Assembly: GCA_035506535.1 (NCBI GenBank)
Contig: DATJPE010000063.1
Location: forward strand, 227,903 to 291,902
Reading direction: 5' to 3'
Length of the DNA: 64,000 bases
Source: Actinomycetes bacterium
GTDB taxonomy: Bacteria; Actinomycetota; Actinomycetes; DATJPE01
Made by a program: the position numbers and the translations under genes. The notes under the pieces are model-generated. The model did no database searches, was not told the origin of the DNA, and saw only the letters and a list, made by a program, of their open reading frames with translations. Below, one piece after another: positions 21,033 to 44,933 of this stretch; the stretch's first letter is position 1, and each line of letters opens with the position of its first letter.

Positions 21033-21126
21033 CTCCGAGACGCCGAGCGACCGGGTCGCGCCGGTCGTCGCTTACGCTAACCGACGTCGTCCCGCGTGAT
21101 CGCGGCCGCCACCGCCAGGAGTCCCC

Positions 21127-25106: not shown

Positions 25107-26000
25107 TCAGGCGAAGTGGATGATCGAGATCCCGCCGAAGACCAGTGAGTAGACGGCGAAGGGGATCAGCGTCCCGGTCTTGAAGAAGCGCACCAGCCAC
25201 GACGCGGCGAGGTAGGCGGCGGCGAAGGCGGCGATGCTGCCGGCGAGCACCTCGCCGCGGATGCCGTTCCCGAGCGGACCGAACAGGTCCGGGATCTTCA
25301 CCACGCCGGCGGCCAGGATGACCGGGGTCGCGAGCAGGAAGGCGAAGCGCACCGCCTGCTCGTGGTCGAGCCCGCGGAACAGCCCGCCCACCATCGAGAT
25401 GCCGGAGCGGCTGATCCCCGCGAGCAGCGCCCCCGCCTGGGCGAAGCCGATGACCGTCGCGTCGAGCGGCCTGATCTGCGTCGCGATGTCGACGTCGACC
25501 TCGGCGCCGGGTTCGGCGCCGGGTCCCTCGTAGGGCCTGGCCACCTTGCGCCGCATGCGCTCCCCGAGCAGCAGGATCAGGCCGTTGAGGACGAGGAAGC
25601 AGGCGGCTGCCAGCGGCTTGGCGAACAGCACGCGCAGCGGGTGCTCGAGCAGGATGCCGAGGGCTCCGACGGGGACCGTCGCGATGACGATGAGCCACGA
25701 CAGCCGTTCGTAGGGCTCGGCCATGCTGCGGCGACGCAGGGAGGACACGAACCCGCGCACGATGGCGTACCAGTCGCGGCGGAACAGGACCAGCAGCGCG
25801 AGCGCAGTCGCCACGTGCAGGCCGACGATGAAGGCCAGGTACGGCGACTCGGCGCTCGACTGCTCGGTGACCAACGACTTCCAGCTGCCGCCGAGCCAGG
25901 CCGGGACGAGCACGGAGTGTCCGAGGCTCGAGATCGGGAAGAGCTCGGTGACACCTTGCAGTAGCCCGATGACGATCGCCTGCAGGTAGGTCAGGGACAT
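25107..26000 (-). CDS. uppP: Undecaprenyl-diphosphate phosphatase UppP/BacA.
   Basis: 'LQGVTELFPISSLGHSVLV' and 'ISRSGISMVGGLF' are the two BacA signature motifs. ATG at 26000. The upstream 90 aa of the ORF are rejected. Confidence 0.85.
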   Translation of the reverse strand: MSLTYLQAIVIGLLQGVTELFPISSLGHSVLVPAWLGGSWKSLVTEQSSAESPYLAFIVGLHVATALALLVLFRRDWYAIVRGFVSSLRRRSMAEPYERLSWLIVIATVPVGALGILLEHPLRVLFAKPLAAACFLVLNGLILLLGERMRRKVARPYEGPGAEPGAEVDVDIATQIRPLDATVIGFAQAGALLAGISRSGISMVGGLFRGLDHEQAVRFAFLLATPVILAAGVVKIPDLFGPLGNGIRGEVLAGSIAAFAAAYLAASWLVRFFKTGTLIPFAVYSLVFGGISIIHFA

Positions 26001-26183
26001 CAGGTGGGTGCTCGACCTTCCGTTCGACCTGCACGTATCTGCGCGGGCCAGCATGCACCTGGATGAACCTGCTGGACCTGCCCGGCGAAGGGGCCAACGA
26101 AGGTTAGGGCCTGCCGCTGTGGGGTTTCTGGGAAACGGGGGGCGCGTCACCCATCCGGTGGCTGCACGCCCGATGACGCTCGG

Positions 26184-27815
26184 GTGAACACCCTTGACCC
26201 GCCCTGGCGAGCCCGCGAGCCGCCGCTCTTTGATGACCGTGCGGTCCGGATTCGACCGCCTGACCAGCACGTTTCGCCCGGGTCGCCAGTCGGAGGGGTC
26301 GTGGAACGAGCCGACGTACGTCGGCGCCGCCTGTGGTCGGCCCTCGCGGTGGCGTCGGTCGCCGCCGGCCTGGCGGTCGGCACGTCCGCGGCCTCCTGGG
26401 CCCTCCCCGCTGGCGGCGTACCGGCCACAACGCCATCGGCAACGGGCACCGTCGTCGCCTCGGACTCACCCGGGGTGAGCTGGCCGAGCGGGGCGTACTG
26501 CGGCTCACCGGACCCGGGCTGCGTCGACTCCTTCGCCACTTGGCGGGGCCGTCCGGTGACGGCGACGACGACCTTCAGCGGCGTCACGACCTGGGCAGCC
26601 CTGGAGGGACCCAACTCCTGGCTCGCCAGCTGGTCGCGAAACCCCTACCGCTCGGCGCTCGACGTGACGGTGCCGATGCTGCCGAACGCGGGCGATGCCT
26701 CCGACCCGACACCGACGCTGGCCGAGGAGGCGAGCGGGGACTACGACGTCTACTTCGAGGTCCTCGCACGAAGGCTCCTCGGTGCGGGCATGGGCTCGGT
26801 GACGATCCGGCTCGGCCACGAGCTCAACGGGACCTGGTACTCCTGGACGGCCCGACCCGATCCCGGGCTGTACGCCGCGGCGTTCCGCGACGTGGTCACG
26901 GCGATGCGGTCCGTCCCCGGGACGCACTTCACCTTCGACTGGAACATCGCGGTCGGCGCCAGTCCCGGGTTCGACGCCACAGCCGCCTATCCGGGGGACG
27001 CCTACGTCGACACGATCGGGCAGGACGTCTACGACGACTCGTGGGGACAGGCACTCACCCCGCAAGCGCGCTGGGCCAAGCTGGTCAACCCGGGCGGAGC
27101 CGTGTCCCAGGGTCTGGCGTTCTGGGCCGACTTCGCGGCCAAGCACGGCAAGCCGCTCTCCTTCGCCGAGTGGGGCCTGGTCGGCGACGGCTCGCCGATG
27201 GCCGGCGGCGGTGCCGGCGGCGACGACCCCTACTTCATCGCCCAGATGCACGCGTGGTTCGCCTCGCACGACGTGGCGTACGAGGTGTACTTCAACCGCA
27301 ACCCGACCGACGGCACGCACCGCATCGACAGCGGCCAGTTCCCCCAGGCGGGGGCCACCTACCAGCAGCTGTTCGGCGGATCCGCCACCGCGTCGCCCAC
27401 GCCGTCCACCACCACCCCACCGTCGGCCACCGCCTCACCAGCCGCATCCAGCGCAGCTTCCGCGGCGACATCCGACGACCCGTCGTGCGCACCGGACCTG
27501 CTGGTCGCGACCAGCCCGTCTCGCTCAGGGGGCGTTCCGCTGTGCGGCAGTACCGTGCACGGCACGGTGTACGTCTTCGCCACCGACGCGACAGCCACTG
27601 CAGCCAGCTTCTTCGTCGACAACCCCAACCGCGCTGCCGCGCCGACCACCCTCGACCTGAACGCGCCCTACGACCTCATGGGGACGGCCGCCGACGGCAG
27701 CGCCAAGCCCTGGGACCTCTCCGCTCTTCCGGCCGGGACGCACACCGTGACCGTGCTCCTCGCGTCGGGATCGGGCACGAGCGTCCAGACCGCGACCTTC
27801 ACGGTCACGCCGTGA
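26184..27815 (+). CDS. Secreted glycoside hydrolase, clan GH-A, GH26-like (beta-mannanase-like). Twin-arginine signal, Ser/Thr/Pro linker, C-terminal beta-rich (CBM-like) domain.
   Basis: 'IRLGHELNGTWYSW' (acid/base Glu motif of GH26/GH-A) and 'SFAEWGL' (nucleophile Glu). 'RRRRLWSALAVASVAAGLAV' is Tat-like. Start uncertain (26184 to about 26300). Confidence 0.55.
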   Translation: MNTLDPPWRAREPPLFDDRAVRIRPPDQHVSPGSPVGGVVERADVRRRRLWSALAVASVAAGLAVGTSAASWALPAGGVPATTPSATGTVVASDSPGVSWPSGAYCGSPDPGCVDSFATWRGRPVTATTTFSGVTTWAALEGPNSWLASWSRNPYRSALDVTVPMLPNAGDASDPTPTLAEEASGDYDVYFEVLARRLLGAGMGSVTIRLGHELNGTWYSWTARPDPGLYAAAFRDVVTAMRSVPGTHFTFDWNIAVGASPGFDATAAYPGDAYVDTIGQDVYDDSWGQALTPQARWAKLVNPGGAVSQGLAFWADFAAKHGKPLSFAEWGLVGDGSPMAGGGAGGDDPYFIAQMHAWFASHDVAYEVYFNRNPTDGTHRIDSGQFPQAGATYQQLFGGSATASPTPSTTTPPSATASPAASSAASAATSDDPSCAPDLLVATSPSRSGGVPLCGSTVHGTVYVFATDATATAASFFVDNPNRAAAPTTLDLNAPYDLMGTAADGSAKPWDLSALPAGTHTVTVLLASGSGTSVQTATFTVTP

Positions 27816-28031
27816 CACCCCGCTACATGTGGCGTCGCGGCCGGCGACCGGCGTCCTGGCACCGGACTCGTGCGGCGCGACGCTCAGTCGAGGACCGGTC
27901 GATGGGTCCTGGCTGGCGAGCGCCGGTCAACCAGCTGGCGACCGACGCGAGCACTGGTACGCCGACGCCGATCGTTTGCGAGGGTCCGGAGCGAGACCAC
28001 GCGCTCGGCCCCCTCGCCGCGCGATCGCTCG

Positions 28032-28104
28032 TGGAGCCAGGGAGACTCGAACTCCCGACATCTGCCTTGCAAAGGCAGCGCTCTACCAACTGAGCTATGG
28101 CCCC
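28032..28104 (-). tRNA. alaT: tRNA-Ala (anticodon UGC), with the G3:U70 identity pair.
   Basis: Reverse complement is GGGGCCATAGCTCAGTTGGTAGAGCGCTGCCTTTGCAAGGCAGATGTCGGGAGTTCGAGTCTCCCTGGCTCCA. No encoded CCA. Confidence 0.9.
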
Positions 28105-28339: not shown

Positions 28340-29731
28340 TCAGCTCACGGTGAAGACGATGGTCCCGTCGTAGGTCCCCTCGACGGTGTTCGTGGGTGCG
28401 TCGACCGTCAGCGTGCCGACCGCCTGGACGGTTCCGTCGCCGCCGCCGGCCGTGGCGGCGAACACGTGCGTGCCCTTGGCTCCTGACGTGCCGCTGCCCG
28501 CTCCGGGCTGGATCCCCGACAGCGCCGGGGTGTCGGTGAACGTGACGTGGCTGGCCGGGTTGGACGACGACAGCTCCGTCCAACCGGTGAAGCCGACGTT
28601 CTGGCCGTCGATGACGTTCACCGTGCCCGCAGGGGCAGGGGTCGAGGTCACCAGGTCAGAGGCGTCGAGGGTCGCGGTCCAGTCCGGGTCGCCCGCCAGC
28701 GTGCTCGTGATGGTCAACGGCGCGTCACCGAGCGCCGGGAAGCGGGCCGAGCTCGACAGCCTTGTCGCGTCGGCGTCGAGCTGCATCGGCGGCAGCACGT
28801 ACGGGTGGGTCGACGTGTACGGCGTCGTGATCGTCAGGAACCCCGGGTCGACCGCGACCTGGATGCTCTGCGTGTCGGAGCACGAGCCGCCGTCCGGATA
28901 GGTCCACATGTCGCCCGGGCAGCTGGCCTCGTCGAGGTGGAACGACACGGGGGCGCTCTCGGCATCCCCTGATCCGAACGATCCCGTACCTGTGAAGTAC
29001 GCCCACACGGTGTGGTCGCCGGCGGCCCCCGAACCGCCGCCCAGCACGCTGGTCATCAGCGTGTACGTGCCCGAGCCGTCGGAGGTCACCTCGCCGGGGA
29101 TCGGCGTCGACGACCCGTTGTCATAGAAGGTGATGCTGCCCTGCGCGTCGGCCGGGGTGACGGTCGCGCGCAGGATCTGGCTGCTGTAGGCCGCGTTTCC
29201 GCTCGTCGGGTCGCGCGCGAGAGAGATGGACACGTTGGTCGAGAAGCCGTTGTCGGCCGCGGCCGAGCTCCAGTGGGTCGAGCTCGAGAAGGTCAGCCTC
29301 GTGGTGAACGAGGCGACCGTGACCAGGCTGGCGGAGACCGTGCACGCGACGCTCACCTGGTAGGCCCCGCGCTGGAAGGTGGTCCCGAGTGAGGTGGCGA
29401 ACGCCGCGAACGACATCCCCGCGGCGACGTCGAACCCAGCCGTTGCCGACAGCCCGGCATCCGACGCCGACCACACCGAGCCGGCGGACGGCAAGCCCGG
29501 ACCAGTGAGGCTCAGCACCCAGGAGTCGGCCGGGGCCGGACAGCCCGCGGAGGTCAGGAACGTCGGGACCGCCGTCACGTCGCCCGCCGACGGGGTCACG
29601 CTCAGCGTGCCGGGCTTCGGGTCCGCGTTGGCACGCACTGGGCCGCCGACGAGGAGACCTAGCATGGTCGCGAGGGCCAGCACGAGGCTCGGCACCCCGC
29701 GTCGCAGGCGTCGGTCCATGCTGGGTCTCAC
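28340..29731 (-). CDS. Secreted protein 'B' (463 aa): signal peptide, beta-rich middle region, and a C-terminal WxL-like domain, paralogous to the C-terminus of the 33236..35044 protein.
   Basis: Signal peptide 'VPSLVLALATMLGLLVGGPVRANA'. The C-terminal about 250 aa align with protein A ('CPGD.W.YP.GGSCSDTQSIQVAV', 'LTITSTLAGDPDWTATL', 'NVIDGQNVGFTGWTEL', and ends '...GTYDGTIVFTVS'). The 'GW.L' and terminal 'GTY..T..FTV' recall the two WxL motifs ('GW.L' ... 'GTYSATLTWTL') of Firmicutes WxL domains. Confidence 0.6.
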   Translation of the reverse strand: MRPSMDRRLRRGVPSLVLALATMLGLLVGGPVRANADPKPGTLSVTPSAGDVTAVPTFLTSAGCPAPADSWVLSLTGPGLPSAGSVWSASDAGLSATAGFDVAAGMSFAAFATSLGTTFQRGAYQVSVACTVSASLVTVASFTTRLTFSSSTHWSSAAADNGFSTNVSISLARDPTSGNAAYSSQILRATVTPADAQGSITFYDNGSSTPIPGEVTSDGSGTYTLMTSVLGGGSGAAGDHTVWAYFTGTGSFGSGDAESAPVSFHLDEASCPGDMWTYPDGGSCSDTQSIQVAVDPGFLTITTPYTSTHPYVLPPMQLDADATRLSSSARFPALGDAPLTITSTLAGDPDWTATLDASDLVTSTPAPAGTVNVIDGQNVGFTGWTELSSSNPASHVTFTDTPALSGIQPGAGSGTSGAKGTHVFAATAGGGDGTVQAVGTLTVDAPTNTVEGTYDGTIVFTVS

Positions 29732-29789
29732 TGGAGAAGGCCCCCGTCGTGCCGACCTCGCATCGACACGACGGGGAGTCCGGGAGCGA

Positions 29790-30941
29790 TCACGTCGCCG
29801 TGACGGTGATCGTCTTCTTGGCGGTCTTCACCGTCGTCGAGCCGGCGTAGGTGGCCGTGATCGAGTGCTTGCCCTTCTTGAGCTTGGACAGGGTGTAGGT
29901 CGCCTTGCCCTTGCTCAGCGTCAGCGTCTTCAGCGTCTTCGTGCCGTCCTTGATCGTCACGCGACCCGTGGGCACAACGCCGGTCGCGGTCACGGTGATC
30001 GTGAGCTTGTCCTTGGCCGTGTGGCTCACGCTGCTGTGCGCCGCCTTGAGGCTCACCTTGCCGGTCGCCTTGACCACGGTCAGCGTGTACGTGGCCGTGC
30101 CCGCGAGGACCAAGCTGTCACCGCCGTAGCTGACCGTCAGGCTGTGCTTCTTGACGCTCAGCGTCTTGGGCAGCGACACCTTCGCGCTGCCCTTCGACAG
30201 CGTCGCGCTGCCGAGACTCTTGGTGCCCTCCTTGACCGTCACCGTTCCCGTCGGCGTCGTCCCGGTGGCGGTGACCTTGACCGACAGAGCACGCGCAGAG
30301 CCGTACGCCGGCTTCGTCGGCGATGCGCTCACCGTGAGCTTCGGCGCCACCAGGGTGGTCGTGGGGTAGATCTGCGTCCACGTGCCCGCCGTGGTGTCGA
30401 CCTGGATGTCGGCGGTGAAGTACGAGCCCGACGGCGGCTGGCCGATCCCTGACGTCCACACCCGCAGCTGATAGACGTTCGCGTAGCCCGCAGTGGTGTC
30501 GGTGTTCGGCTGTGCGCCGATGACCGACTGCAGGCTGCCGTCGGTCGGACCCAAGGTCACCACCGGGTTGGTGAAGCTGTTGATCGGCGCCGGCGCGGAG
30601 GCGTTGGGGTACTTGGTGGACGCCGACAGGGACGAGACCAGCCACTGGCCGGTGGGCTTCGCGTGGTCCGGCGTCGCCATGGCCAGCGTCGCCTTGATGT
30701 CGCCCTTGCGCCCCGGTGCCGACGCGCTCACGTAGGAGACGAACGGGACGTCGCTCAGCTTGCCGGACGTCACCTGCGCACCGGTGGAGTCGAACAGCGT
30801 CAGGGTGCCGAGCCCCTGCACGTCCGGCTCCCACGGGGGAGAGGAGTCGGCGACTGCGGGCGAGAACGTCAGGCCGGCGAGGCACAGCGCCGCGGCCAGC
30901 ACCGCGATCGAGCCGGTGAGCACCCATCGAAGAAGCTTCAC
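29790..30941 (-). CDS. Secreted protein 'C' (383 aa): signal peptide, shared N-terminal domain X, then two tandem Lys-rich bacterial Ig-like repeats.
   Basis: GTG at 30941, with GGAG 6 nt upstream ('VKLLRWVLTGSIAVLAAALCLAGLTFSPAVA'). Domain X 'DSSPPWEPDVQGLGTLTLFDSTGAQVTSGKLSDVPFV...PNASAPAPIN' is shared with proteins A and D. Repeats 'TGTVTVKEGTKSLGSATLSKGSAKVSL' and 'TGRVTIKDGTKTLKTLTLSKGKATYTL'. The N-terminal 285 aa of the ORF-track entry are rejected. Confidence 0.6.
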   Translation of the reverse strand: MKLLRWVLTGSIAVLAAALCLAGLTFSPAVADSSPPWEPDVQGLGTLTLFDSTGAQVTSGKLSDVPFVSYVSASAPGRKGDIKATLAMATPDHAKPTGQWLVSSLSASTKYPNASAPAPINSFTNPVVTLGPTDGSLQSVIGAQPNTDTTAGYANVYQLRVWTSGIGQPPSGSYFTADIQVDTTAGTWTQIYPTTTLVAPKLTVSASPTKPAYGSARALSVKVTATGTTPTGTVTVKEGTKSLGSATLSKGSAKVSLPKTLSVKKHSLTVSYGGDSLVLAGTATYTLTVVKATGKVSLKAAHSSVSHTAKDKLTITVTATGVVPTGRVTIKDGTKTLKTLTLSKGKATYTLSKLKKGKHSITATYAGSTTVKTAKKTITVTAT

Positions 30942-31075
30942 GACGTCTCCTCGTCGCCAGCCACGGTCACCCGTGGTCGTCGCTGTCGGTCCAGTCGCGC
31001 GCAGCCTCACGGCCACGGGCGAATGCCCGCCCTGCGCGAGGTTGCGGCCGGATGAACGCCCGACGTCCATCCGCG

Positions 31076-31984
31076 TCATGGGACGCGTTCCCTGTCCTGC
31101 TTGGCCGCTCTGGCCGTTCGCAGCCGCTGGACACCGAACACCAGCGCGCCTCCGACGATGGCTGCGGCGAGAGCGATCGCGACCCGGTTCTGGCTCGAGT
31201 CGGTCGGCGAGCCGGACGCGGTGTTCGAGTCGTTCCCGGCTGCGACCGCCGCGGACCCAGCCCCGCCGGAGGCGGCGGCAGCCGAGTGGCTCACGGCACT
31301 GTGTGAAGACGCGGTCACCGACGTCTTCGAGGTCTTGGCCTGAGCGCCTTCGCCCTTGACGGACACCGACGGGGCGGCGGACGGCAGCTTCGAGGAACCC
31401 AGCACCGCGGTCTCCAGGGAGACGCCCTTGCCGACGTTGCAGGCGACGCTCGCGCCCTTGACCACGTGCCAGGTGTTGCCGGTGACCTGGATGACCGTCG
31501 CCGGATAGGGAGTGGTGAGCGGTGGGGTGTTGGCGTTCGAGAAGTACATCCGCACCTGGAGCAACCCGTCCCACTGTGGTGGCGCCTGGCTGGTCAACGA
31601 GACGAGCGGCGCATCCCCGTAGGTCGCTTGGGCGATCGGGTGCTTGTTGTTGGTGTACGTCGACGCCGCGGTGAACTGCTTGCCGAACCACTCGCCGGGA
31701 TCGACGTCCTTTCGTGGCACGAAGACCCCGAGCGTCGCCTTCCCGAACTTTCCGGTGTATCCGGCGGGCGTCGCCACGCTGGAGATGGCCGTCCACACGA
31801 AGGGCACCGCGGTCAACGACCCGGAGGTGACGGCGTGGCCCTTCGCGTCGCAGAAGGCGATGCCGCCCTGCCAGTTCGGGTCCTTGAAGGGGATGTTGTC
31901 GGCCGCCGCGGAGCCGACCGAGAGCCAGGCACTGATCAGCGAAGTGATGCCAAGGACGCCGAGCACGGCGAGCGAGCGCTTCAC
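31076..31984 (-). CDS. Secreted protein 'D' (302 aa): signal peptide, divergent copy of domain X, and a C-terminal TM anchor with a basic tail.
   Basis: 'VKRSLAVLGVLGITSLISAWLSVGSAAA'. Then 'FKDPNWQGGIAFCDAKGHAVTSGSLTAVPFVWTA', which matches the PPWEPD...LFDS.G..VTSG.L..VPFV pattern. C-terminus 'VAIALAAAIVGGALVFGVQRLRTARAAKQDRERVP'. The start overlaps the stop of the upstream gene. Confidence 0.55.
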   Translation of the reverse strand: MKRSLAVLGVLGITSLISAWLSVGSAAADNIPFKDPNWQGGIAFCDAKGHAVTSGSLTAVPFVWTAISSVATPAGYTGKFGKATLGVFVPRKDVDPGEWFGKQFTAASTYTNNKHPIAQATYGDAPLVSLTSQAPPQWDGLLQVRMYFSNANTPPLTTPYPATVIQVTGNTWHVVKGASVACNVGKGVSLETAVLGSSKLPSAAPSVSVKGEGAQAKTSKTSVTASSHSAVSHSAAAASGGAGSAAVAAGNDSNTASGSPTDSSQNRVAIALAAAIVGGALVFGVQRLRTARAAKQDRERVP

Positions 31985-33123
31985 GGCCGGCCTCCCGGAG
32001 TGAGGACGGGCTCGCGCGACGCCGAGCCTCCCGTCGGGGGGCTGAAGTCGCCGGGGAGGTGCCTGCGCCGGCGTCTCCAGAACCAGCCGAGGCCGATCAC
32101 CACGAACAGCCCGACCACCAGCACCCATGGGATGGCCCAGAAAGTCACCGCCGCGGTCACCGGCTCGAGCCCGGGATCGACGTCACCGGGTGCCGCGGCC
32201 GCGTCGACACGGACGTGCGCGGTGAGGCGGCCCTGCGGCCGTACGCCGTGCACGTACGCCACCTCCGGGTAGGAGGCCCCGGGCAGGAGCAGGGGCAGGT
32301 CCGGCAGTTTGACCAGCAGCGCTTTGCCGAACGGGCCCTTCACCCACACTTGCTGGGATCCGCCGAGCTTGACGTTTCCCCCGTTGTGGACGACGAAGTG
32401 GACGGTGACGGTGCCTCGGGTGACGGGGTTGAGCGATCCGCCGTACGTCGCGCGCAGGCCGTGGATGGACAGGTTCGGGTGCAGCGGGCCGGACACGCGG
32501 AGGAACACCCGGGAGGCGGTCCGCTGGAGCAGCGTCTCGCGCTGACCGGACTTCGAGATCGCGATCGAGGACAGCGACGCGATGATGCCTCCTGCGTAGT
32601 CACCCGGAGGTGCGCCGGCGGGGACGCGCAGGGTCAGCGGGATGATGACCGCGCTGGGCCCCTTGACGGTGCGCGCCGGCACGCGGACGGTCGACGGACC
32701 GCTGAGAGTGATCCACCTCCCGAGGTCCTTGGGTGGGTCCGTCGGGGAGGCGAGCGCGAAGCCCCCGCTGGCGTCCGCGAAGGCTTGCACCGGATAGACG
32801 CTCAGGAGCAGCGGCCGGGTCGAGGCGTTGAGCACCGCCACTTCGTCGGTGAGCCGGGCGCCAGGTGTCGCCTGGTAGGTGAACGTCGGGCGACCGTCCT
32901 GCTTGTGGTGAGAGGCCGGCGCGACGCCGAAGGTGGCGACGAACTGGCCCTTGCCGGGAGCCGGTGACCCGACCGCGCCTTGCGAGGAGGCAGGGGAGGG
33001 ACTCGACGAGGGGCCCGAATCCGTGGCGACGGCATCAGCCATCGGCGAGGCCACGGCCGTGAGGAGACAGAGCGGGAGCGACAGGAGCAGCACGCGTCGG
33101 GCGCGTGCCCGGAGAGCGGACAT
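31981..33123 (-). CDS. Cell-surface protein with signal peptide and C-terminal TM anchor plus poly-Arg tail; DUF916/CscA-like topology.
   Basis: 'MSALRARARRVLLLSLPLCLLTAVASPMADAVA' signal. About 300 aa of beta-rich ectodomain. C-terminal 'VTFWAIPWVLVVGLFVVIGLGWFWRRRRRHLP'. Its position directly upstream of WxL-like genes parallels CscA. Sequence-level DUF916 membership is not verified. Confidence 0.45.
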   Translation of the reverse strand: MSALRARARRVLLLSLPLCLLTAVASPMADAVATDSGPSSSPSPASSQGAVGSPAPGKGQFVATFGVAPASHHKQDGRPTFTYQATPGARLTDEVAVLNASTRPLLLSVYPVQAFADASGGFALASPTDPPKDLGRWITLSGPSTVRVPARTVKGPSAVIIPLTLRVPAGAPPGDYAGGIIASLSSIAISKSGQRETLLQRTASRVFLRVSGPLHPNLSIHGLRATYGGSLNPVTRGTVTVHFVVHNGGNVKLGGSQQVWVKGPFGKALLVKLPDLPLLLPGASYPEVAYVHGVRPQGRLTAHVRVDAAAAPGDVDPGLEPVTAAVTFWAIPWVLVVGLFVVIGLGWFWRRRRRHLPGDFSPPTGGSASREPVLTPGGRP

Positions 33124-33172
33124 GGTCTTGGTGGTTTCCGTTCGCGAGGTGGCGGCCCGCGGACCGCCGGAG

Positions 33173-33198
33173 CGGGGCCGAGCTAGCGCCCGGCCCCG
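33173..33198 (-). terminator. Weak hairpin (8-bp GC stem) about 40 nt downstream of protein A.
   Basis: CGGGGCCG agctagcgc CGGCCCCG, between the stop at 33236 and the next start at 33123. Confidence 0.3.
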
Positions 33199-33235
33199 CC
33201 CGGTGGCCTCAGCCGCCGAACGTGGTGTTCGGAGT

Positions 33236-35044
33236 TCAGCCGACGGTGAAGACGATGGTTCCGTTGTAGGTGCCGTTGATGGTGTTGGTCGGGGCGTTGA
33301 TGGTCAGGACCCCGTGCGCCTGCAGGGTTCCGTTGCCGCCACCGGTGGTGGTGGCGAAGGTGTGCACGCCCTTGGCCCCGCCGGTTCCCGTGCCCGTTCC
33401 GGGCTGGACACCGGCCAGTGCCGCGTTGTCGGTGTAGCGGACAACAGTTGCGGAGTTGCTCTTCGCGTCGGTGGCCCACCCGGTGAGGCCCACGTTCTGG
33501 CCGTCGATGACGTTGTTCGTCCCGGCCGGGCCGGCCGCCGGGCCGGTCAGGTCGGAGGCGTTCAGCGTCGCCGTCCAGTTCGGGTCACCGGCCAGCGTGC
33601 TGGTGATGGTGAGGTCCGGACCGCTTGCGGCCGGGAACTGGGCCGACGTGGTCAGCAGCGAGCCGTCCGCCGCGAGCTGCATCGCGGGCAGGACGAACGG
33701 GTTCGTCGCGGTGTACGGCGTGGTGATGGTGATGTAACCGGCGCTCACCGCCACCTGGATGCTCTGGGTGTCGGAGCAGGACTGCCCGGCCGGGTAGGCG
33801 GTCGGGTCACCCGGGCAGGTCTGGGCACCGAGGTGGAAGGTCACCGCGGCGCTGGTACCGGTCCCGAAGCTTCCCGTCCCGATGTAGCTCGCCACCACCG
33901 AGTGGTCGCCGACGGGGCTGGTGCCGCCGTTCAGCGCGGTCGTAGTGAAGGAGAAGTTGCCCGAGGAGTCCGGCCCGGTGAGAGTGCCGGCGAGCGGGGT
34001 GGTCGACCCGTCCGCGAACAGCGACAGGGTGCCGGTCAGGGCCGGCGAGCCGGCAGCGGCGCTCACCTGACCGGTGAAGGTCTGGGTCGTGAACGCGGTC
34101 GTGCCGCTCGTGCTGGCGCGTGCCAGCGTGACCGTCGGGATGATCAGTGGCGGACCGACGTGCACCGTCACCGTGCCCTGCGAACCCTGGACCAGCGTGC
34201 CCGCGGTCGGAGTGAACACCGCCTTGTAAGCGTGGTCCGTACCATTGGTCACCGCAGGAGGCGTGGTCGTCGTCGTGTAGGTGCCTGTCCCGGAGGTGAC
34301 CGCCTGCGAGCTGCCGATCGGTGTGGTTCCGTCATAGAACTGCAGCGTTCCGTTGCTCGCCGGGGCGATCGTGGCCGTGAGCGTCACCGTCGGCGGCGTC
34401 CCGGTGAACGGACCGGGCGGGTTCGCGGTCAGCGTGGTCGTCGTGGTGGTGATGGACGGGTAGACGAGCGACCACGTGCCGGCCGAGGTGTTCACCGAGA
34501 TGTCCGCCGCCCAGAACTGCCCCGTGGAGACGCCCGGGCCGGAGTCGTACAGCCGCAGCTGGTAGATCCCTGCGTATCCCGCAGTGGTGTCGCTAGTTGC
34601 ACCGCCGATGAAGCTGGCGATGTTCCCGTCGGTCGCGCCGAGGGTCACCACCGGGAACTGGAAGCCGGTGCTCGACGTGCCGGTCAGCGGCGCCGGGGCG
34701 GTGCTCGACGGGAAGTTGGTCGAGGCCGAGGCGCTGCCGGTGTACCAGGCCGTCGAGTCCGGCTTGGTGTGGTCGGGCGCCGCGAAGACGAGGCTGGCCT
34801 TGGTGGCGCCGGCCTGCTTCGCCGACGTCGCTGCCGCGTAGTCCGCGATGTGGTTGAGGTTGGTCCCGCCGGTGAGGACGTTGCCGGCGGAGTCGTACAG
34901 GACGAGGCTGCCCTGGGAGTTCGGGTCCGGCTCCCACGGCGGGGTGGTGGCCGCGTTCGCGGCACCGGCTCCCGCGGCGAGCGTCGCGCCGATGATCGCG
35001 ACGGCGGCAGCCCCCGCGATCAAGGGCCTGATCGTGCGCTTCAT
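33236..35044 (-). CDS. Secreted protein 'A' (602 aa): signal peptide, domain X, Thr-rich Ig-like middle region, C-terminal WxL-like domain.
   Basis: 'MKRTIRPLIAGAAAVAIIGATLAAGAGAANA'. 'TTPPWEPDPNSQGSLVLYDSAGNVLTGG' (domain X). The C-terminal about 250 aa are paralogous to protein B and end '...NTINGTYNGTIVFTVG', with 'GLTGWATD' in the first WxL-like position. Confidence 0.6.
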   Translation of the reverse strand: MKRTIRPLIAGAAAVAIIGATLAAGAGAANAATTPPWEPDPNSQGSLVLYDSAGNVLTGGTNLNHIADYAAATSAKQAGATKASLVFAAPDHTKPDSTAWYTGSASASTNFPSSTAPAPLTGTSSTGFQFPVVTLGATDGNIASFIGGATSDTTAGYAGIYQLRLYDSGPGVSTGQFWAADISVNTSAGTWSLVYPSITTTTTTLTANPPGPFTGTPPTVTLTATIAPASNGTLQFYDGTTPIGSSQAVTSGTGTYTTTTTPPAVTNGTDHAYKAVFTPTAGTLVQGSQGTVTVHVGPPLIIPTVTLARASTSGTTAFTTQTFTGQVSAAAGSPALTGTLSLFADGSTTPLAGTLTGPDSSGNFSFTTTALNGGTSPVGDHSVVASYIGTGSFGTGTSAAVTFHLGAQTCPGDPTAYPAGQSCSDTQSIQVAVSAGYITITTPYTATNPFVLPAMQLAADGSLLTTSAQFPAASGPDLTITSTLAGDPNWTATLNASDLTGPAAGPAGTNNVIDGQNVGLTGWATDAKSNSATVVRYTDNAALAGVQPGTGTGTGGAKGVHTFATTTGGGNGTLQAHGVLTINAPTNTINGTYNGTIVFTVG

Positions 35045-35146: not shown

Positions 35147-36454
35147 TCACGGCCCGAACTGGGTGAAGGCGTACGTCGGGACGACGCCCGCGGCGGAGAT
35201 GAGCGACTGCGCGGAGCTGGTGGCGAAGTACGGCGCCCCGCCGGGCCCGTACGTCGTCCCGCCGATCGTCACGCAGCCCGTGGTGTGGCCCGCACCGGAG
35301 CACGGGTTGTAGAACAGCGTGCGCACCCAGTTGAGCGTGCCGCCGGGCTGGAACACCTTGGTGCTGTTGATGTCAGCGTCCCGGAAGTACAGGTAGAGGC
35401 TGCGGTTGATGTTGAACAGCGAGCCCGACTTCGGGGTCCCGGTCGTCCAGTACTTGACGTTCGGGGTCAACGTGGTGTTGCCGGTGCACACGCTGGAGTA
35501 GCCGACGCAGCTCGGGTCCTTGAAGTAGCCGATCCCCGACCCGCCGTCGTTAGCGGTGCCGTCGCTGAGCTTGCCGAGGTAGAGGTTGAGCCGCCCGCTG
35601 GACATCGGCTCGATGGCGTCCGTCGGAGCGCCGGACGCGTCGATCGCCTCGGGGTCGTTCTCCTCGACGTTGGTGACGCAGCTGCCGGGTGTCGTCACAC
35701 CGATCGCCGACAGGAACGACGTGCGAGTGCCGGAGCCGATCTGCGGCAGCAGCGGCTTGATCGTGTCACTCGAGGTCCCACCGAGGGTGGGGTCGTTCCA
35801 CGTCGTGACCGAGCAGTTGTAGATGGCCTGAAGCTGTGTCGTGGACAGCGCCACCGCGTTGGTCGTCGACGAGCTCAGCATCGCCAGGCCGTCCGTGCCG
35901 ACCGTGATGCTGTCCATCGTGTTGCCGCCCGACCCTCGGGCCGAGGACGCGCGGGAGAAGTCCGCCAGGTGCTTGGTGTCGGCGACCAGGAAGTTGAACC
36001 CCGCACCGGAACCGTTCGGTCGCTGCACCGGCTGGGTACCGGCGCGCAGGACGATCGTCGGGTTCAGCGTGCAGGGGACGTCGCCCGTGTGGGTCGTGTT
36101 CTGGTTGCCGGTCCCCTGGGTGGCTCCGGTGCCGGGTGCGCAGTTGTTCGTCGCGCTGTTGCCCGGCGTGTTGCCCACGCCCTGGGGGCTGTAGGCCAAC
36201 CGCGCGTTCGCGTCGGCGGTGGCGTCGAAGCTCACCAGTTTGTTGGCGTTGCCGAGGGTGTTGTAACCGGTGTCGCCGAGGTGGTCCCCGTCGGCGACGA
36301 AGTCGACGAGATTCTGCAGCGTGTCGGATCCGACCCCGACGACGTCCTTGCTTGACGGTGCGTAGTCGGCCTGTGCGGCCGTGGTCGTCAGAGCGAGCGA
36401 CGCGGTGATCACACCGACCGTCGCCGCGCCGAGCAAGACCTTCTTGCGTCGCAT
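35147..36454 (-). CDS. PstS-family periplasmic phosphate-binding protein paralog (type 2 PBP), secreted.
   Basis: ATG at 36454 ('MRRKKVLLGAATVGVITASLALTTTAAQA'). 'VGVGSDTL', 'LSTTQLQAIYNCSVTTWNDP', 'IGSGTRTSFL' parallel PstS motifs ('LSGQTLAKIFTNKITNWDDP', 'GSGTSF'). The upstream 49 aa of the ORF are rejected. Confidence 0.6.
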   Translation of the reverse strand: MRRKKVLLGAATVGVITASLALTTTAAQADYAPSSKDVVGVGSDTLQNLVDFVADGDHLGDTGYNTLGNANKLVSFDATADANARLAYSPQGVGNTPGNSATNNCAPGTGATQGTGNQNTTHTGDVPCTLNPTIVLRAGTQPVQRPNGSGAGFNFLVADTKHLADFSRASSARGSGGNTMDSITVGTDGLAMLSSSTTNAVALSTTQLQAIYNCSVTTWNDPTLGGTSSDTIKPLLPQIGSGTRTSFLSAIGVTTPGSCVTNVEENDPEAIDASGAPTDAIEPMSSGRLNLYLGKLSDGTANDGGSGIGYFKDPSCVGYSSVCTGNTTLTPNVKYWTTGTPKSGSLFNINRSLYLYFRDADINSTKVFQPGGTLNWVRTLFYNPCSGAGHTTGCVTIGGTTYGPGGAPYFATSSAQSLISAAGVVPTYAFTQFGP

Positions 36455-36629: not shown

Positions 36630-37598
36630 TCACATGAGGTTCGGCATCAGCTGGACGGCCACCGAGGTGACCCCCCAGAGGCAGGCCAGCAGGGCGGGGA
36701 CACCCACCACCCAGGTCTGCCAGGTGCCCCAGTAGACCCACGAGACGACGTACGTCGATGCCACGGCGACCAGGAGGAACAGCCACAGCACCAGCTGCAC
36801 GAGGACGCTGGTGTCGATGCTCATCGCCTGTTCTGCTGCCGGGACCGCGGCCGGACGACCGGGTGGTGCCGGGACGGACGTGCCGGCCAGGTCGGCGTCG
36901 ACGTAGACGACGCCGGTCGGGGCCCACACCGAGCGCCAACTCGCACCCTCGGCGCTGACCAGGGTCAACCGCCCATGCCCCGGCTGCACCGGCTGGGGAA
37001 AGCGGTCCCCGGCCCGCCTGATGTCGATGACGCGGTAGGTGAAGCGGCCCTGCCCCGTGACGACCGCGATCGCGTCCCCGCGGGCGAGGGTGCCGACGTT
37101 CTCGAACGGTCCCCCGAAGGTGCTCTCCCGGCCGTAGACGACACTGACGCCGGCCTGGCCCGGCAGCGGGGTGTCGCGACGGTGCCCGGGGCCGGCGATC
37201 AGGTCGCCGGACGTGGTGCCCTCGACGACGACCAGGTCGTGCAGCTCCAGGGCGGGGATGCTCAACAGGGCCACCGGCGCACCCGGGCGGATCAGTCCGC
37301 CCAGCGGCGCGGTCTCCTCGGCCAGCTGCTCGCGCAGTGTGTCGTAGCCAACGTGCTGGTCACGCCACTCCTGGAAGGAGCTCAGGACGACCCCGTAGAT
37401 CACCGCCCAGGCTGCGACCACCGCGGTGCACACGATCACGCCGGTGACGACCCGGCGGCGTGGAGTCGGTCGCGGACGGGCGGGCAGCCGCAGCCTCTTC
37501 GGCAGGCGCACGTGGACGCGCCGCCGCCGCCTGGCCTCGGGGACGACGTCGGGGGGATCCTCGACGACGGTCACCGGCGACCGAGCCCGCTGTTCCAC
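36630..37598 (-). CDS. Sortase-fold protein with catalytic His and Cys substituted (probable pseudo-sortase). N-terminal TM plus two C-terminal TM helices.
   Basis: Aligns residue-for-residue with the bona fide SrtE at 20208-21032: 'LPGQAGVSVVYGRESTFGGPFENVGTLARGDAIAVVT' vs 'LPGEVGNFAVAGHRATNGQPLANIPRVTVGSYVYVRT' (His to Arg), and 'GRLTLVSAEGASWRS' vs 'ARLTITTCNPRWAS' (Cys to Ala). Starts within or at the end of the upstream 909-aa gene. Confidence 0.6.
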   Translation of the reverse strand: MEQRARSPVTVVEDPPDVVPEARRRRRVHVRLPKRLRLPARPRPTPRRRVVTGVIVCTAVVAAWAVIYGVVLSSFQEWRDQHVGYDTLREQLAEETAPLGGLIRPGAPVALLSIPALELHDLVVVEGTTSGDLIAGPGHRRDTPLPGQAGVSVVYGRESTFGGPFENVGTLARGDAIAVVTGQGRFTYRVIDIRRAGDRFPQPVQPGHGRLTLVSAEGASWRSVWAPTGVVYVDADLAGTSVPAPPGRPAAVPAAEQAMSIDTSVLVQLVLWLFLLVAVASTYVVSWVYWGTWQTWVVGVPALLACLWGVTSVAVQLMPNLM

Positions 37599-40300
37599 AC
37601 CGCCGCGACCAGCGCAAGCACCACGAGGACCAGCAGCGCCGGGAACGCCAGCGCGGCCGGCCCCGGCCGCACGCCGACCGTCTTGCCGGTGAGGACCACC
37701 GCGATCTTCGACGGACTCGGCGACGACGACGGCGACGGCTTCGGTCTGGCGGAGGAGGAGCTCGTCGAGGGCGCGGCTGCGGTTGAAGGGCTCCCCGCGG
37801 CCGACGGCTCACCGCCGGTTGTGCCGGTCCCCGCCTCGCTCGTGGTGGAGGGCGTGGGACTGACGGATGGCGTCGGCGTCGGCGTCGGGGCCGGGTCGCC
37901 GTTGACGTAGGGCACCACGCCCTGCTGCTGCTCGACGGCCTGTGCGGCCGTCCGGGTGTAGGCCGCGAGACCGGCCAGATGGTTGGCCGCGGTCATCGGC
38001 AGGTAGCCGACGGGCAGCTGCCCTTGGTCGAGACCCGGCTGCTGACCTACCCCCGCCGCGAAGCGCAGTAAGTCGGCGTAGTGCGCGGCGTCGGCGGCGG
38101 GGAGCCCCTGCGTCGGGACGTCGAGGGACAGCACGAGGATGCCCGGGTACGCCTGCTCGCCGGCCGCGCGCGTGCGCAGCGCGGCGTACGGGACCGGCCA
38201 CGTCCCGAGCTGCTTGTCTGGCTCGAGCATCGCCGCGGCGGCCCGCAGCCCGTCGTCGCTTGGTCCGACGAACGTGCGGCCGGTCGCGTCGGTGAGCGCC
38301 GTCCCGCTCCCGCTGCTGACGTGGGTCTGCAGCTGGGCGACGTTGAGCTGGTAGCGCTCCGCGTCCGCCAGAGACACCAGCCCGAGGATGAAGCGGTACC
38401 CCGGGTTCTCCCGGCCGAGCGCGACCAGCTTCTGGTTCTGCTGGCCGGCGTTCTGGCAGTTGATCTGGGAGTTGGCGATGTCGAACTGCATGTTCAGGCT
38501 GATCGTGGCCGGGTTCGACACCGGTGCGGCGACGAGCGGCAGCCAGGGGGTCGGGCTGAGCGCGAGGCACGGGTTTCCAGCCTGCAGACCCTTGGGGATG
38601 AACGTGTCCCGTAGCGGCCACGTCGAGACCGGGAGCTTGATCCCCTTGTACGCGGGGTTGACGACCATCCCCCATGGGTCGGGGCGCCCGTCGAGCCACG
38701 CACGCGCCTCCGGGTCGGCGTTGATGTAGCTGGTCAGCGCGGTCAGCACGTCGGAGTCGCTCGACATGATCGCCAGCGTCGCGGCCGGCTCGAGGTTGTA
38801 GCCGAGGCTCACGACTCCGGGGTTGAGCGCGCGGAACTCTGGGTCGTGGCCGATGTCGATCGGGTTCCCCGACAGCGCCTTGTCCTCGCTCTTCATCGTC
38901 GGGTTCGAGGGATAGGACTCGGTGAGCAGCTTGGCGAGCAGCCGCGGAGTCAGCTTGAGGTCTGGATGGACCCCGCCGCTCTGGTCGTCCACCGAATAGG
39001 CGATCGCGAACCCGCTGACGGCGACTGGCGCCTGCACCACCGGCTGGGGGAAAGGTTCGTCCGGCGGCCCGGCCTGGACGGCTGCTTCGACACTGCCCGC
39101 GCGCAGCAGGTTCTTCGCCTGCGGCTCGCTGGTCTGCACGTGCTGGAACTTGAACAGCTTGGGGTCGAGACAGAACCTCGGCGCCCACTGCTCCGTGGCC
39201 TGCGCGAGCGCCTCGGAGCCGTACAGGTAGATCGGCTGTCCGTTGCTGACCAGGTTGCAGACCCCCGCGGACGGGGCGAAGGTCAGCGGGACCGAGATCC
39301 GGTTGCGCCAGTTGGACGCGCTCCACCACAGCTCACCGCTGACCGACAGGTCCTCGCTCTCCCAGGTCCCGTAGTTGTAGTCGCCCGGTGCGTACTTGCC
39401 GGTCGCCGCGCACTCCGACTCGATGGTCGGGACCAGCGAGGGGTCGGGCGCCTCCGAGGCCGGTAGCTGCGCACCCGCGGCGTCACAGCTGATGCCCATG
39501 ATCGGGATGATCACCAGCGAGCAGGTGACCGTGTCCGAGCAGCCCATGGACGCGTTGGAGTCCACCGTCTGCACCACGAACTTGATCGAGCCCGCCCCGG
39601 TCTTGTCGCTCGCGCCGTACGTCGTGTTCCCCGGCTGCAGCGACTCGTCCGCGTTGGCCGCCTCGGGGGCCATGCCGGCGCAGCCGAGGGAGCCGCCCGG
39701 GTAGACGGTGCCGTTGGCGGCCACGAAGGGGATCCAGTGCTGCACGCCGGCGTCCGAGCCGGCGCACGCCTTCGGCAGCGGGCTGGGCTCGCCGACCTTC
39801 TCGGCGCGGTCGGCCGTCGTGGCGTAGCGATCCATCCGGTACGGGGGGTAGTTGAACACGTAGTCGGACTGGAAGCGTTCGGCGGGCGTCTGGGTCCAGC
39901 AGGTCTGCGGTGACAGCCGCTTCGAGGCCGGCACCGACGTGCTGTCGATGCCGCGGCACTCCATGACGACGACGGGGTACTCCTGCTGCGCGGCGAGCGC
40001 GGAGTTCTGGTCGCCCACCAGCCCGCCGGTCGGGTGCGCGCCCGACCAGCTCACGTTGATCGTCTGCCGGTCGCGAAGCTGCTCGGTGTCGTCGACGTGA
40101 ACGGTGACGCTACGGCTGTCGACCGGCACGTCCTGGCCCGCCACGAGGTTCACCCGGTCGATGGTCTTGGTCTTGGCGAAGCCGGTGTCGGCGGAACCGG
40201 CCGCCCGGGCCGTACCGGCCGACGCCGGCAACGCCAGCCCCGCGGCCGCGAGGAGCGCGACCAGCGCGAGGCCGAGCCTTGACGGCAGCTTCCGCGTCAT
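37571..40300 (-). CDS. Large secreted protein (909 aa): signal peptide, Cys-rich N-terminal region, central PstS-like PBP-fold region, Pro/Thr/Ser linker, C-terminal TM anchor.
   Basis: The ATG at 40300 overlaps the pstS stop (ATGA). 'MTRKLPSRLGLALVALLAAAGLALPASA'. 'YLYGSEALAQATEQW', 'LTPRLLAKLLTESYP', 'VAVSGFAIAY' echo PstS 'IQGSGSSWSANAVNQW', 'LSGQTLAKIFTNKI', 'AIGYDEYSY'. C-terminus '...PTPTPTPSVSPTPST...ALLVLVVLALVAAVWNSGLGRR'. The N-terminal 460 aa of the 1369-aa ORF-track entry are out-of-frame overlap with pstS and are rejected. Confidence 0.6.
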   Translation of the reverse strand: MTRKLPSRLGLALVALLAAAGLALPASAGTARAAGSADTGFAKTKTIDRVNLVAGQDVPVDSRSVTVHVDDTEQLRDRQTINVSWSGAHPTGGLVGDQNSALAAQQEYPVVVMECRGIDSTSVPASKRLSPQTCWTQTPAERFQSDYVFNYPPYRMDRYATTADRAEKVGEPSPLPKACAGSDAGVQHWIPFVAANGTVYPGGSLGCAGMAPEAANADESLQPGNTTYGASDKTGAGSIKFVVQTVDSNASMGCSDTVTCSLVIIPIMGISCDAAGAQLPASEAPDPSLVPTIESECAATGKYAPGDYNYGTWESEDLSVSGELWWSASNWRNRISVPLTFAPSAGVCNLVSNGQPIYLYGSEALAQATEQWAPRFCLDPKLFKFQHVQTSEPQAKNLLRAGSVEAAVQAGPPDEPFPQPVVQAPVAVSGFAIAYSVDDQSGGVHPDLKLTPRLLAKLLTESYPSNPTMKSEDKALSGNPIDIGHDPEFRALNPGVVSLGYNLEPAATLAIMSSDSDVLTALTSYINADPEARAWLDGRPDPWGMVVNPAYKGIKLPVSTWPLRDTFIPKGLQAGNPCLALSPTPWLPLVAAPVSNPATISLNMQFDIANSQINCQNAGQQNQKLVALGRENPGYRFILGLVSLADAERYQLNVAQLQTHVSSGSGTALTDATGRTFVGPSDDGLRAAAAMLEPDKQLGTWPVPYAALRTRAAGEQAYPGILVLSLDVPTQGLPAADAAHYADLLRFAAGVGQQPGLDQGQLPVGYLPMTAANHLAGLAAYTRTAAQAVEQQQGVVPYVNGDPAPTPTPTPSVSPTPSTTSEAGTGTTGGEPSAAGSPSTAAAPSTSSSSARPKPSPSSSPSPSKIAVVLTGKTVGVRPGPAALAFPALLVLVVLALVAAVWNSGLGRR

Positions 40301-43091: not shown

Positions 43092-43102
43092 CTCGGATCT
43101 CC

Positions 43103-44119: not shown

Positions 44120-44933
44120 GGACGTAATCGCTGGTTCGGGGGTCGCGGGGGTTGCCGAAGATCTGCTCGGTGGAGCCGGCCTCGACGATCCCGCCCGGCG
44201 TGCCCTGCTCGGCGAGGAAGAACGCGCACTGCTGGGAGACGCGCGCGGCCTGTTGCATGTTGTGGGTGACGATGACGATCGTCACGTCGCGCCGCAGCTC
44301 GGCGATGGTCTCCTCGATCCGGCGGGTCGACGTCGGGTCCAGGGCGGAGCACGGCTCGTCCATGAGCAGCACGTCCGGCTCGACCGCGAGCGAGCGGGCG
44401 ATGCACAGCCGTTGCTGCTGCCCTCCGGAGAGCGCACCGCCGGCGGAACCCAGCCGGTCCTTCGCCTCGGTCCACAACCCCGCCCGGCTCAGGCAGCGCT
44501 CGACGAGGTCGTCCTTGTCGTGCCTGGCGATCTTGGTTCCGGTCAGCTTGAGACCCGCCAGGACGTTCTCGGCGATCGACATGGTCGGGAACGGGTTCGG
44601 CTTCTGGAAGACCATCCCGATGCGCTTGCGGGTCTCGGTGATACGACGTCCGGCGTCATAGATGTCGACCCCGTCGAGCAGCACCTGACCGGCCAGCTGC
44701 GCCGAGGGCACCAGCTCGTGCATCCGGTTGAGGGTGCGCAGGAACGTGGACTTCCCGCACCCCGAGGGTCCGATGAGGGCGGTGACCGTCCCCGGGGGCA
44801 TGGACAGGGACACCCGTTCCAGCACCTTGTGGCTGCCGAACCACGCCGAGACCGCCACCGCGTCGAGGTGGGCGCCCCGGATCTGGCCGGTCACGTCGGG
44901 CAGGCGGATGGTCGTGTCGCTGACCGAGCTCAT
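44103..44933 (-). CDS. pstB: Phosphate import ATP-binding protein PstB.
   Basis: '[17 protein letters not shown]', '[19 protein letters not shown]', '[13 protein letters not shown]', '[15 protein letters not shown]' and C-terminal 'DYVHGRFG' are all PstB hallmarks. Confidence 0.9.

Follow-up and report, generated by a model that had tools for sequence, protein, structure and literature searches.

A cluster of five genes for exported proteins

The window examined here is a stretch of 64,000 nt with a GC content of 69–72%, taken from a metagenome-assembled genome (MAG) labelled 'Actinomycetes bacterium'. At positions 28340–35044 it carries five consecutive minus-strand genes, here called A to E. 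Two of their products (A and E) end in a domain that resembles the WxL domain of Firmicutes surface proteins, and a third (D) resembles the WxLIP proteins encoded beside WxL proteins in Firmicutes. The window proteins are identical to the NCBI entries HTY72713–HTY72719. In these entries A, C and E are named hypothetical, B is named Ig-like (immunoglobulin-like) and D 'DUF916 domain-containing protein', while the next two genes upstream of E are named as a substrate-binding protein and a 'class E sortase'.

The genes are separated by short gaps or overlap by 4 nt. They are arranged in the transcription order E - D - C - B - A. Gene E (33236–35044) encodes 602 amino acids (aa) with a signal peptide, an N-terminal domain of approximately 165 aa ('PPWEPD...', hereafter N-domain), Ig-like (Big_3_5-like) domains and a C-terminal WxL-like domain (33239–33784) beginning at the Cys pair C410, C423. 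Gene D (31981–33123, 380 aa) features a signal peptide, a Pro/Ser-rich linker, two beta-sandwich domains and a transmembrane (TM) helix (residues ~321–349) followed by an RRRRR tail. Gene C (31076–31984, 302 aa) shares its first 4 nt with the end of D; its product consists of a signal peptide, a diverged paralogue of the N-domain, a Ser/Ala-rich linker, a TM segment (267–288) and a basic tail. Gene B (29790–30944, ~383 aa) encodes a signal peptide, an N-domain and two Big_3_5 Ig-like domains, with no anchor. Gene A (28340–29731; NCBI start at 29719) has an open reading frame (ORF) of 463 aa, or 459 aa from the NCBI start, with a signal peptide, a unique N-terminal region, an Ig-like domain and a C-terminal WxL-like domain (28343–28888). 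A is the second WxL-like protein of the locus and is missing from most related loci, its gene being an additional one that appears to be specific to this genome, and no homologue of its N-terminal region was found in other loci.

All five proteins start with a hydrophobic signal-like segment, and neither a lipobox nor an LPXTG/LAXTG-type motif near the C-terminus was found in any of them. This is in agreement with an earlier interpretation of the same DNA made without database searches (the sequence-only reading), which had described five signal-peptide genes in a row on the minus strand without lipobox or LPXTG motif; ORFs were found for all five. The same reading had placed D directly upstream of the WxL-like genes. 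Instead, D lies between them, downstream of E and separated from A by C and B.

Homology of D and of the A/E terminal domain

Proteins A and E are 56% identical over their last 301 aa (E-value 2e-91). This region consists of an Ig-like (Big_3_5-like) domain and a terminal domain of approximately 185 aa, with 64% identity over 208 aa in the terminal domain. The sequence-only reading had assumed a single shared domain of about 250 aa; the sharing is confirmed, whereas the region comprises two domains. In both proteins, which are secreted according to their signal peptides, the WxL-like domain is the last domain and extends to the final residue.

When the E domain alone served as the query of a word-indexed homologue search, no match was obtained. 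An exhaustive HMMER search with a profile of A and E yielded 328 representative clusters at an E-value of ≤ 1e-3. In most of them the domain is C-terminal, a placement also seen in most of the 150 family matches listed. Some members of approximately 200–250 aa (P0036, P0042 and proteins of loci L017 and L023) are composed of a signal peptide and the WxL-like domain alone. Passenger domains across the family range from beta-propellers (lactonase, RCC1, PD40) to fn3, cadherin-like and PBP_like_2 domains, and this variety suggests that the WxL-like domain acts as an all-purpose retention module at the C-terminus. In A, E and many other members the domain opens with a Cys pair ('C-PGD...SC-SDTQ'; residues 410 and 423 in E, ~33776–33817; residues 267 and 280 in A, numbered from the NCBI start 29719), which suggests a disulfide.

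The relationship of this family to WxL domains was addressed by profile comparisons in both directions. The Pfam WxL model PF13731 was matched by 19 of the 100 family members scanned at an E-value of ≤ 0.1, the best value being 3e-6. Member P0219 reached 25.4 bits, compared to a gathering cutoff of 25, over model positions 55–209 of 214, and P0046 reached 24.0 bits over positions 39–209. For the reciprocal test, NCBI-annotated WxL clusters on plasmids of Enterococcus, Melissococcus and Lactiplantibacillus (88 ORFs) were searched with a hidden Markov model (HMM) of the actinobacterial family. The six annotated small WxL proteins were the top six of the 88 ORFs, with scores of 28.6, 22.7, 17.0, 13.0, 8.0 and 7.2 bits, while the other ORFs scored 5.4 bits or less. 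Four of the six exceed all of 1400 shuffled controls, the maximum of which was 9.9 bits. Alignment of the actinobacterial family with the six annotated Firmicutes proteins by hhalign gave a probability of 86% and an E-value of 5e-6 over 133 columns; two negative controls gave probabilities of 0.9% and 0.06%.

In the hhalign register, 'I-V-T-D-T-R-A-G-x-x-x-W-T-A' of the actinobacterial family falls on 'D-x-R-G-x-x-A-G-W-x-L' at the first WxL motif, and 'Y-x-G-T-I-T-F-T-V' falls on 'Y-x-x-T-L-T-W-x-L' at the second. Column counts were taken over 139 family domains. In the window proteins the first motif is 'AGDPNWTATL' (in A and E 'ITSTLAGDP(N/D)WTATL'; in E ITSTLAGDPNWTATL), and the Trp at this position is retained in 124 of the 139 domains (89%). 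Hallmarks of WxL domains are an Asp eight residues and an Arg six residues ahead of this Trp, which follows a Gly-containing turn (PMC9772566). The corresponding counts in the family are 105/139 (76%) for Asp, 94/139 (68%) for Arg and 123/139 for a Gly four residues ahead of the Trp. At the C-terminal end, A reads '...GTYDGTIVFTVS' and E '...GTYNGTIVFTVG', the latter being the second motif of E, which thus reads 'NWTATL ... IVFTVG' over both motifs. The spacing between the motifs has a median of 108 residues in the family, compared to 84–120 in the small Firmicutes WxL proteins that were fetched and to about 68 reported in the literature for large WxL proteins.

These results correct the motif assignment of the sequence-only reading, according to which A and E reproduce both Firmicutes motifs. 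The C-terminal ends '...GTY(D/N)GTIVFTV(S/G)' are present as described and align in register with the second motif, although Phe stands where Firmicutes proteins have Trp. The strings 'GFTGWTEL' and 'GLTGWATD' are likewise present, but only 6 of the 139 domains (4%) retain the Trp of 'G(L/F)TGW', and the string is therefore not a motif; the first motif had been misplaced. Judged from sequence, A and E end in a remote WxL homologue, for which the best description is a WxL-like sister branch largely overlooked by current models.

Protein D was compared with the WxLIP proteins, which consist of a signal peptide, two Ig-like domains and a TM helix (PMC10599100). The layout of D agrees with this topology: hydrophobic segments are located at residues 11–29 and 321–349, the latter followed by RRRRR. 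The DUF916 model PF06030 (WxLIP_PGBD, the N-terminal domain of WxLIP proteins) was recognised in D itself below the cutoff (E-value 0.006, 17 bits compared to a cutoff of 27.3), the match covering model positions 9–117 of 121. It was matched by 18 of the 21 D homologues, with a best E-value of 7.6e-10. When PDB sequences were searched with a profile of the D family, the chains 9i25_C and 9i1y_A of the solved Enterococcus faecium protein EfmWxLIP1 were found with an E-value of 2e-9. With regard to the conserved N-terminal WxLIP strand 'NQIDKxxxYFDLK', HMMER pairs NQIDKAIGYFDLLVAPE of EfmWxLIP1 with the family consensus 'kpDgRpyFalgvtPG', which reads KQDGRPTFTYQATPG in D, the aromatic core alone being common to both. 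The match to EfmWxLIP1, the PF06030 matches of the homologues and the topology support D as a membrane-anchored protein of the WxLIP / DUF916 type, in line with its earlier assignment as a CscA/DUF916-type protein.

AlphaFold2 models were obtained for both partners. The model of D has a mean pLDDT (predicted local distance difference test score) of 81.8, with values above 90 across most of the two beta-sandwich domains, and contains a helix at residues 333–353. The second domain of D is a beta-sandwich in this model, and the structural alignment of D covers more than one domain. Its top structural neighbour is WxLIP, followed by the chaperones CfaA, CsuC and FimC of chaperone-usher systems. 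The terminal domain of E was modelled with a pLDDT of 90.4. Its best PDB neighbours, all with low scores, are the chaperone-usher pilins CfaB, CsuA/B and FimA and further donor-strand fibres, namely archaeal cannulae and thread-like fibres; weak matches to CBM4 and GH123 beta-sandwiches were also observed. Judged from these models, the neighbours of the E domain and of D would amount to a pilin-and-chaperone-like pairing in a monoderm. A search of PDB sequences with the WxL-like family profile yielded chance matches only.

Conserved linkage of the WxL-like and DUF916 genes

Related loci were collected by scanning a single genome of each species with the WxL-like domain alone as the query (alignment of seven sequences), which yielded 27 loci. 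Their hosts are nearly all Acidimicrobiia and unclassified Actinomycetes or Actinomycetota MAGs, with one member of Frankiaceae. The sequence-only reading had suggested looking for orthologous clusters in other Nocardioidaceae or Propionibacteriales; the closest loci found belong mostly to Acidimicrobiia and unclassified Actinomycetes MAGs. A DUF916 gene adjoins the WxL-like gene in 22 of the 27 loci. In 21 of these it comes directly 3' of the WxL-like gene and shares its strand; in the remaining one (L006) it is found at a distance of ~0.5 kb on the opposite strand. Two of the contigs (L007 and L009), both with the same module, originate from one MAG labelled Acidobacteriota (JAGWSF01), and their presence there reflects mis-binning or, alternatively, lateral transfer beyond Actinomycetota. 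L007 carries WxL-like, DUF916, C-type and B-type genes.

The linkage was also observed in Streptomyces. In loci L004 (7951–11227) and L005 (8489–11107), the gene just before the DUF916 gene ends in a WxL-like domain (family HMM E-values of 1.9e-10 and 2.4e-6, respectively). The partner in L004 is purple-acid-phosphatase-like and has a HupE/UreJ_2 gene just upstream, while the partner in L005 is annotated as 'beta-xylosidase' and shows a weak match to PF13731. A passage of a recent study (PMC12537917, Nat Commun 2025) describes DUF916 as a frequent neighbour of Ang-2-HupE/UreJ-2 and a metallophosphatase in Actinomycetota. This neighbourhood is exactly that of L004, where the metallophosphatase bears a WxL-like domain directly before the DUF916 gene. 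The passages of that study concerned with this neighbourhood mention no WxL-like domain of the phosphatase, and the passengers and accessory genes differ from those of the window.

The pair is part of a larger module that is conserved in many uncultured Actinomycetota. In its recurrent order, a gene for a 909-aa TM protein is followed by a sortase homologue, one or two PstS-like (PBP_like_2) genes and then the E, D, C and B types. In the window, a gene for a secreted PstS-like substrate-binding protein of the PBP_like_2 type is found at 35147–36454 (-), and almost all related loci have such a gene directly 5' of their E-type gene. In the sortase homologue (36630–37574, -), one TM segment is N-terminal and two are C-terminal, and the C-terminal 'LPNL[LMV]' is conserved. 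The protein is without the catalytic Cys: where TLxTC is expected, the window copy reads 'LTLVSA', and 'LTLVTS' stands in the 11 homologues whose alignment runs through this part. Its match to the Pfam Sortase model is confined to positions 1–84 of 125. As a component of the module the homologue is conserved, and in related loci it is always paired with the 909-aa gene (37571–40300, -), whose product features a signal peptide, a C-terminal TM segment with a basic tail and weak similarity to PBP_like_2. Directly upstream of the module and in the same orientation, genes of a Pst-like ABC (ATP-binding cassette) transporter encode a PBP_like_2 binding protein (40297–42006, -) and a permease (42003–43898, -), each overlapping its neighbour by 4 nt, and an ATPase (44103–44933, -).

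Neither a sorting signal nor a lipobox was found in A–E, the 909-aa protein or the homologues of these proteins, and no sorting signal is conserved among the 909-aa and C-type proteins. The string 'VVLTGK' ahead of the TM segment of the 909-aa protein was considered as a cryptic sorting signal and rejected, as it is not conserved. The window encodes a second sortase (20211–21071, -) with a canonical 'TITTC' and a full Pfam Sortase match.

The N-domain of E ('PPWEPD...YQLR...TW', ~165 aa) is shared with C and B, as detected with jackhmmer and not noted in the sequence-only reading; B and E are 46% identical in this domain (E-value 5e-39). Its approximate positions are 34450–34950 in E, 30350–30850 in B and 31450–31900 in C, all on the minus strand. 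Three paralogues per cluster (E-, C- and B-type) were found across more than 20 MAG loci, and the domain yielded no Pfam family and no sequence relative in the PDB. The paralogues differ in anchoring: C is held by a TM helix, while B is extended by Ig repeats (Big_3_5 in B, E-value 1.3e-28). Homologues of B are 380–1600 aa long with 2 to ~10 Ig repeats, and C-like homologues all end in a TM segment and an RRRR tail.

Some loci show further features. On one contig (CAVZYD010000006.1; L013/L017), a divergent gene set lies ~12 kb from the E-D-C module and encodes a 1170-aa protein with N-domain and Ig repeats, a small ORF and a protein consisting of a signal peptide and a WxL-like domain only; small WxL-like versions thus occur near some modules. 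In L012, L018, L020, L021, L026 and L028, genes of the E type or for DUF916, sortase or PBP proteins are split over several frames, L028 being the worst case, which is probably due to assembly or frameshift errors rather than to pseudogenes. On the 3' side of A, the window carries a tRNA-Ala(TGC) gene (28031–28104, -) and three envelope-related neighbours: genes for a secreted GH26-like protein (26184–27815, +), a BacA/UppP undecaprenyl-pyrophosphate phosphatase (25107–26270, -) and a PIG-V/GT87-like mannosyltransferase (23913–25022, +).

Relation to WxL/WxLIP systems and alternative explanations

Based on the homologies and the gene linkage, we consider the locus to be probably (at roughly 70%) an actinobacterial counterpart of the Firmicutes WxL/WxLIP (Csc-type) surface system with respect to the identity of its parts. 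Compared to the known systems (CscA-D of L. plantarum, loci A–C of E. faecium, the Elr operon of E. faecalis, and Listeria), a WxLIP-type gene is likewise located beside genes for secreted WxL-related proteins, the WxL-type domain is always the last one, and the passengers are Ig-like or enzymatic. The median motif spacing fits the small-WxL type. By the criteria that Hassan et al. 2023 (PMC10599100) set for a WxL cluster, the locus counts as one, with one WxLIP and two WxL-like proteins within four genes, provided that the WxL-like domain is accepted as WxL. The present cluster differs in its additional conserved partners (the PstS-like protein, the Cys-less sortase homologue, the 909-aa TM protein and the triplicated N-domain). 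It also differs in that large proteins bear the long-spacing type of domain, whereas large Firmicutes WxL proteins have the short spacing and another topology.

Several results weigh against this identification. Neither A nor E matched PF13731 in scans of Pfam (up to an E-value of 10) and NCBIfam. The direct comparison is negative; the evidence for homology to WxL is indirect and comes from several independent tests, among which the hhalign probability is good yet not decisive alone. The residue two positions after the first Trp is Ala in 53%, Val in 24% and Leu in only 20% of the family domains, and 'x-L' mostly reads 'T-A' or 'T-V'. At the second aromatic position, 131 of 139 domains (94%) have Phe and none has Trp, with Val or Ile at +2. 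Since Phe replaces the second Trp, the family lacks the dual Trp-x-Leu signature that defines WxL domains, with its second motif at the extreme C-terminus. The designation 'WxL-like' and 'diverged' used in the sequence-only reading is the right level of claim. A and E themselves, like a minority of the family, have Ser and Leu in place of the hallmark Asp and Arg. In D and all of its 21 homologues, the second domain gave no sequence match to DUF3324 / PF11797. In the WxL fold, the two motifs lie on neighbouring antiparallel strands that build a buried hydrophobic platform; no solved WxL domain was found in the PDB for a comparison of folds with the E-domain model.

The gene content deviates as well. 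Within 8 kb, most related loci have a single WxL-like gene. The cluster of the window contains no small WxL protein (signal peptide and WxL only), since A (459 aa) and E (602 aa) carry extra domains. No LPXTG-anchored, CscD-like protein is present in the cluster, and the TM-anchored C, in which no sortase motif was found, takes its place. The minimal trio known from the literature is thus not conserved. A CscD-type LPXTG protein is frequent in WxL clusters but not obligatory (Hassan et al. 2023, PMC10599100).

A rather unlikely alternative to wall docking is a fibre or pilus-like assembly, in which the WxL-like and N-domains would polymerise by donor-strand exchange, with D as a chaperone-like or anchor protein and with assembly assisted by the Cys-less sortase homologue; the resemblance to WxL would then reflect a shared incomplete Ig-like fold only. 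Such an assembly would fit the nearest folds of the E domain (pilins, cannulae and thread-like fibres), the three N-domain paralogues per cluster, the long Ig-repeat stalks of the B type and the constant presence of the sortase homologue. The sequence link, however, leads specifically to WxL in the Pfam matches of family members, in the reciprocal HMM search and in hhalign. Moreover, the sortase homologue is without its nucleophilic Cys, no pilin sorting signal or pilin motif was found, and an usher-like protein is absent from this monoderm. In a second alternative, the terminal domain would be a carbohydrate- or ligand-binding beta-sandwich unrelated to WxL, D a generic membrane protein with two Ig-like domains, and the genes merely co-transcribed members of a phosphate-scavenging operon, in agreement with the flanking PstS-like and ABC-transporter genes. 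The missing direct Pfam match of A and E, the weak structural matches to CBM4 and GH123 and the phosphatase-like or 'beta-xylosidase'-annotated partners in Streptomyces point in the same direction. We nevertheless judge this explanation to be quite unlikely: the reciprocal HMM search, the hhalign register and the Pfam matches in family members favour WxL and no carbohydrate-binding module, and the top match of D in both structure and sequence is specifically WxLIP. In addition, the strict adjacency of the two families in Acidimicrobiia, Actinomycetes MAGs and Streptomyces mirrors the linkage of WxL and WxLIP in Firmicutes.

For the preferred reading as a WxL/WxLIP counterpart, the mechanism of non-covalent retention is less certain than the identity of the parts. 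Following Sec export, the WxL-like domain would dock onto D, the cell wall or both and thereby retain E and A at the cell surface non-covalently, with the N-terminal domains of both proteins displayed outward. Most likely, a beta-strand of D would complete the WxL-like sandwich. A comparable arrangement is predicted by AlphaFold2 models of the enterococcal proteins, where the WxL sandwich is completed by a hairpin of DUF916 (PMC10599100). This prediction and the pilin- and chaperone-like structural neighbours are the basis of the proposed strand complementation. Donation of a strand by D would resemble the way in which chaperones of the chaperone-usher pairs CfaB-CfaA, CsuA/B-CsuC and FimA-FimC complement pilins: the E-domain model is close to incomplete-Ig pilins and D to two-domain periplasmic chaperones, and both fit strand complementation between partners. 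The analogy is purely structural, with low scores and no sequence similarity; in contrast to these pairs, there is no usher, the envelope is monoderm and D is membrane-anchored.

The paralogues E (held by its WxL-like domain), C (held by its TM helix) and B (extended by Ig repeats), together with their partners, would form one surface assembly. This assembly may be linked to the capture of phosphate or other anions, as suggested by the flanking PstS-like and ABC-transporter genes. A more far-reaching proposal, which we put forward as speculative and rather improbable, is that the seven-gene module is an unrecognised envelope machine of monoderm Actinomycetota, in which the WxLIP protein, in the manner of a chaperone-usher chaperone or anchor, strand-complements the WxL-like subunit, the three paralogues (one retained by the wall or the WxLIP protein, one by its TM helix and one extended by Ig repeats) build a surface stalk or fibre and the Ser/Ala sortase fold acts as a non-transpeptidase assembly factor, the whole feeding a Pst-type transporter.

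The searchable literature yielded no account of an actinobacterial WxL-type cluster or of the seven-gene module. In this respect the outcome agrees with the sequence-only reading, which knew of no described actinobacterial counterpart. For Actinomycetota, the DUF916 half is already annotated in databases and mentioned in the 2025 paper, while these proteins carry no annotation of the WxL-like half.

WxL/WxLIP systems have been regarded as peculiar to Lactobacillales and Bacillales and interpreted in terms of host adhesion and virulence. The second domain of WxLIP was accordingly named 'host-binding domain', and its TM helix was proposed to insert into host membranes. The WxL-like version, in contrast to that of the gut commensals among the Firmicutes, is widespread in free-living Actinomycetota of soil and peat (Acidimicrobiia, unclassified Actinomycetes and Streptomyces), which argues that the core function is a general one, namely the non-covalent retention of secreted proteins on the Gram-positive envelope. 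The range of WxL would thereby be widened to free-living soil Actinomycetota instead of being restricted to gut Firmicutes, and the host-centred interpretation of WxLIP is called into question. The sequences of the family could extend the Pfam WxL model, and the Streptomyces DUF916 loci offer a culturable test bed. Leads towards a new surface assembly come from the additional partners, namely the sortase homologue without Cys, the triplicated N-domain and the PstS-like proteins. The WxL-like domain also provides a hypothesis for the cell association of hundreds of unannotated actinobacterial exoproteins, including Ig-repeat proteins, beta-propellers, phosphatases and binding proteins.

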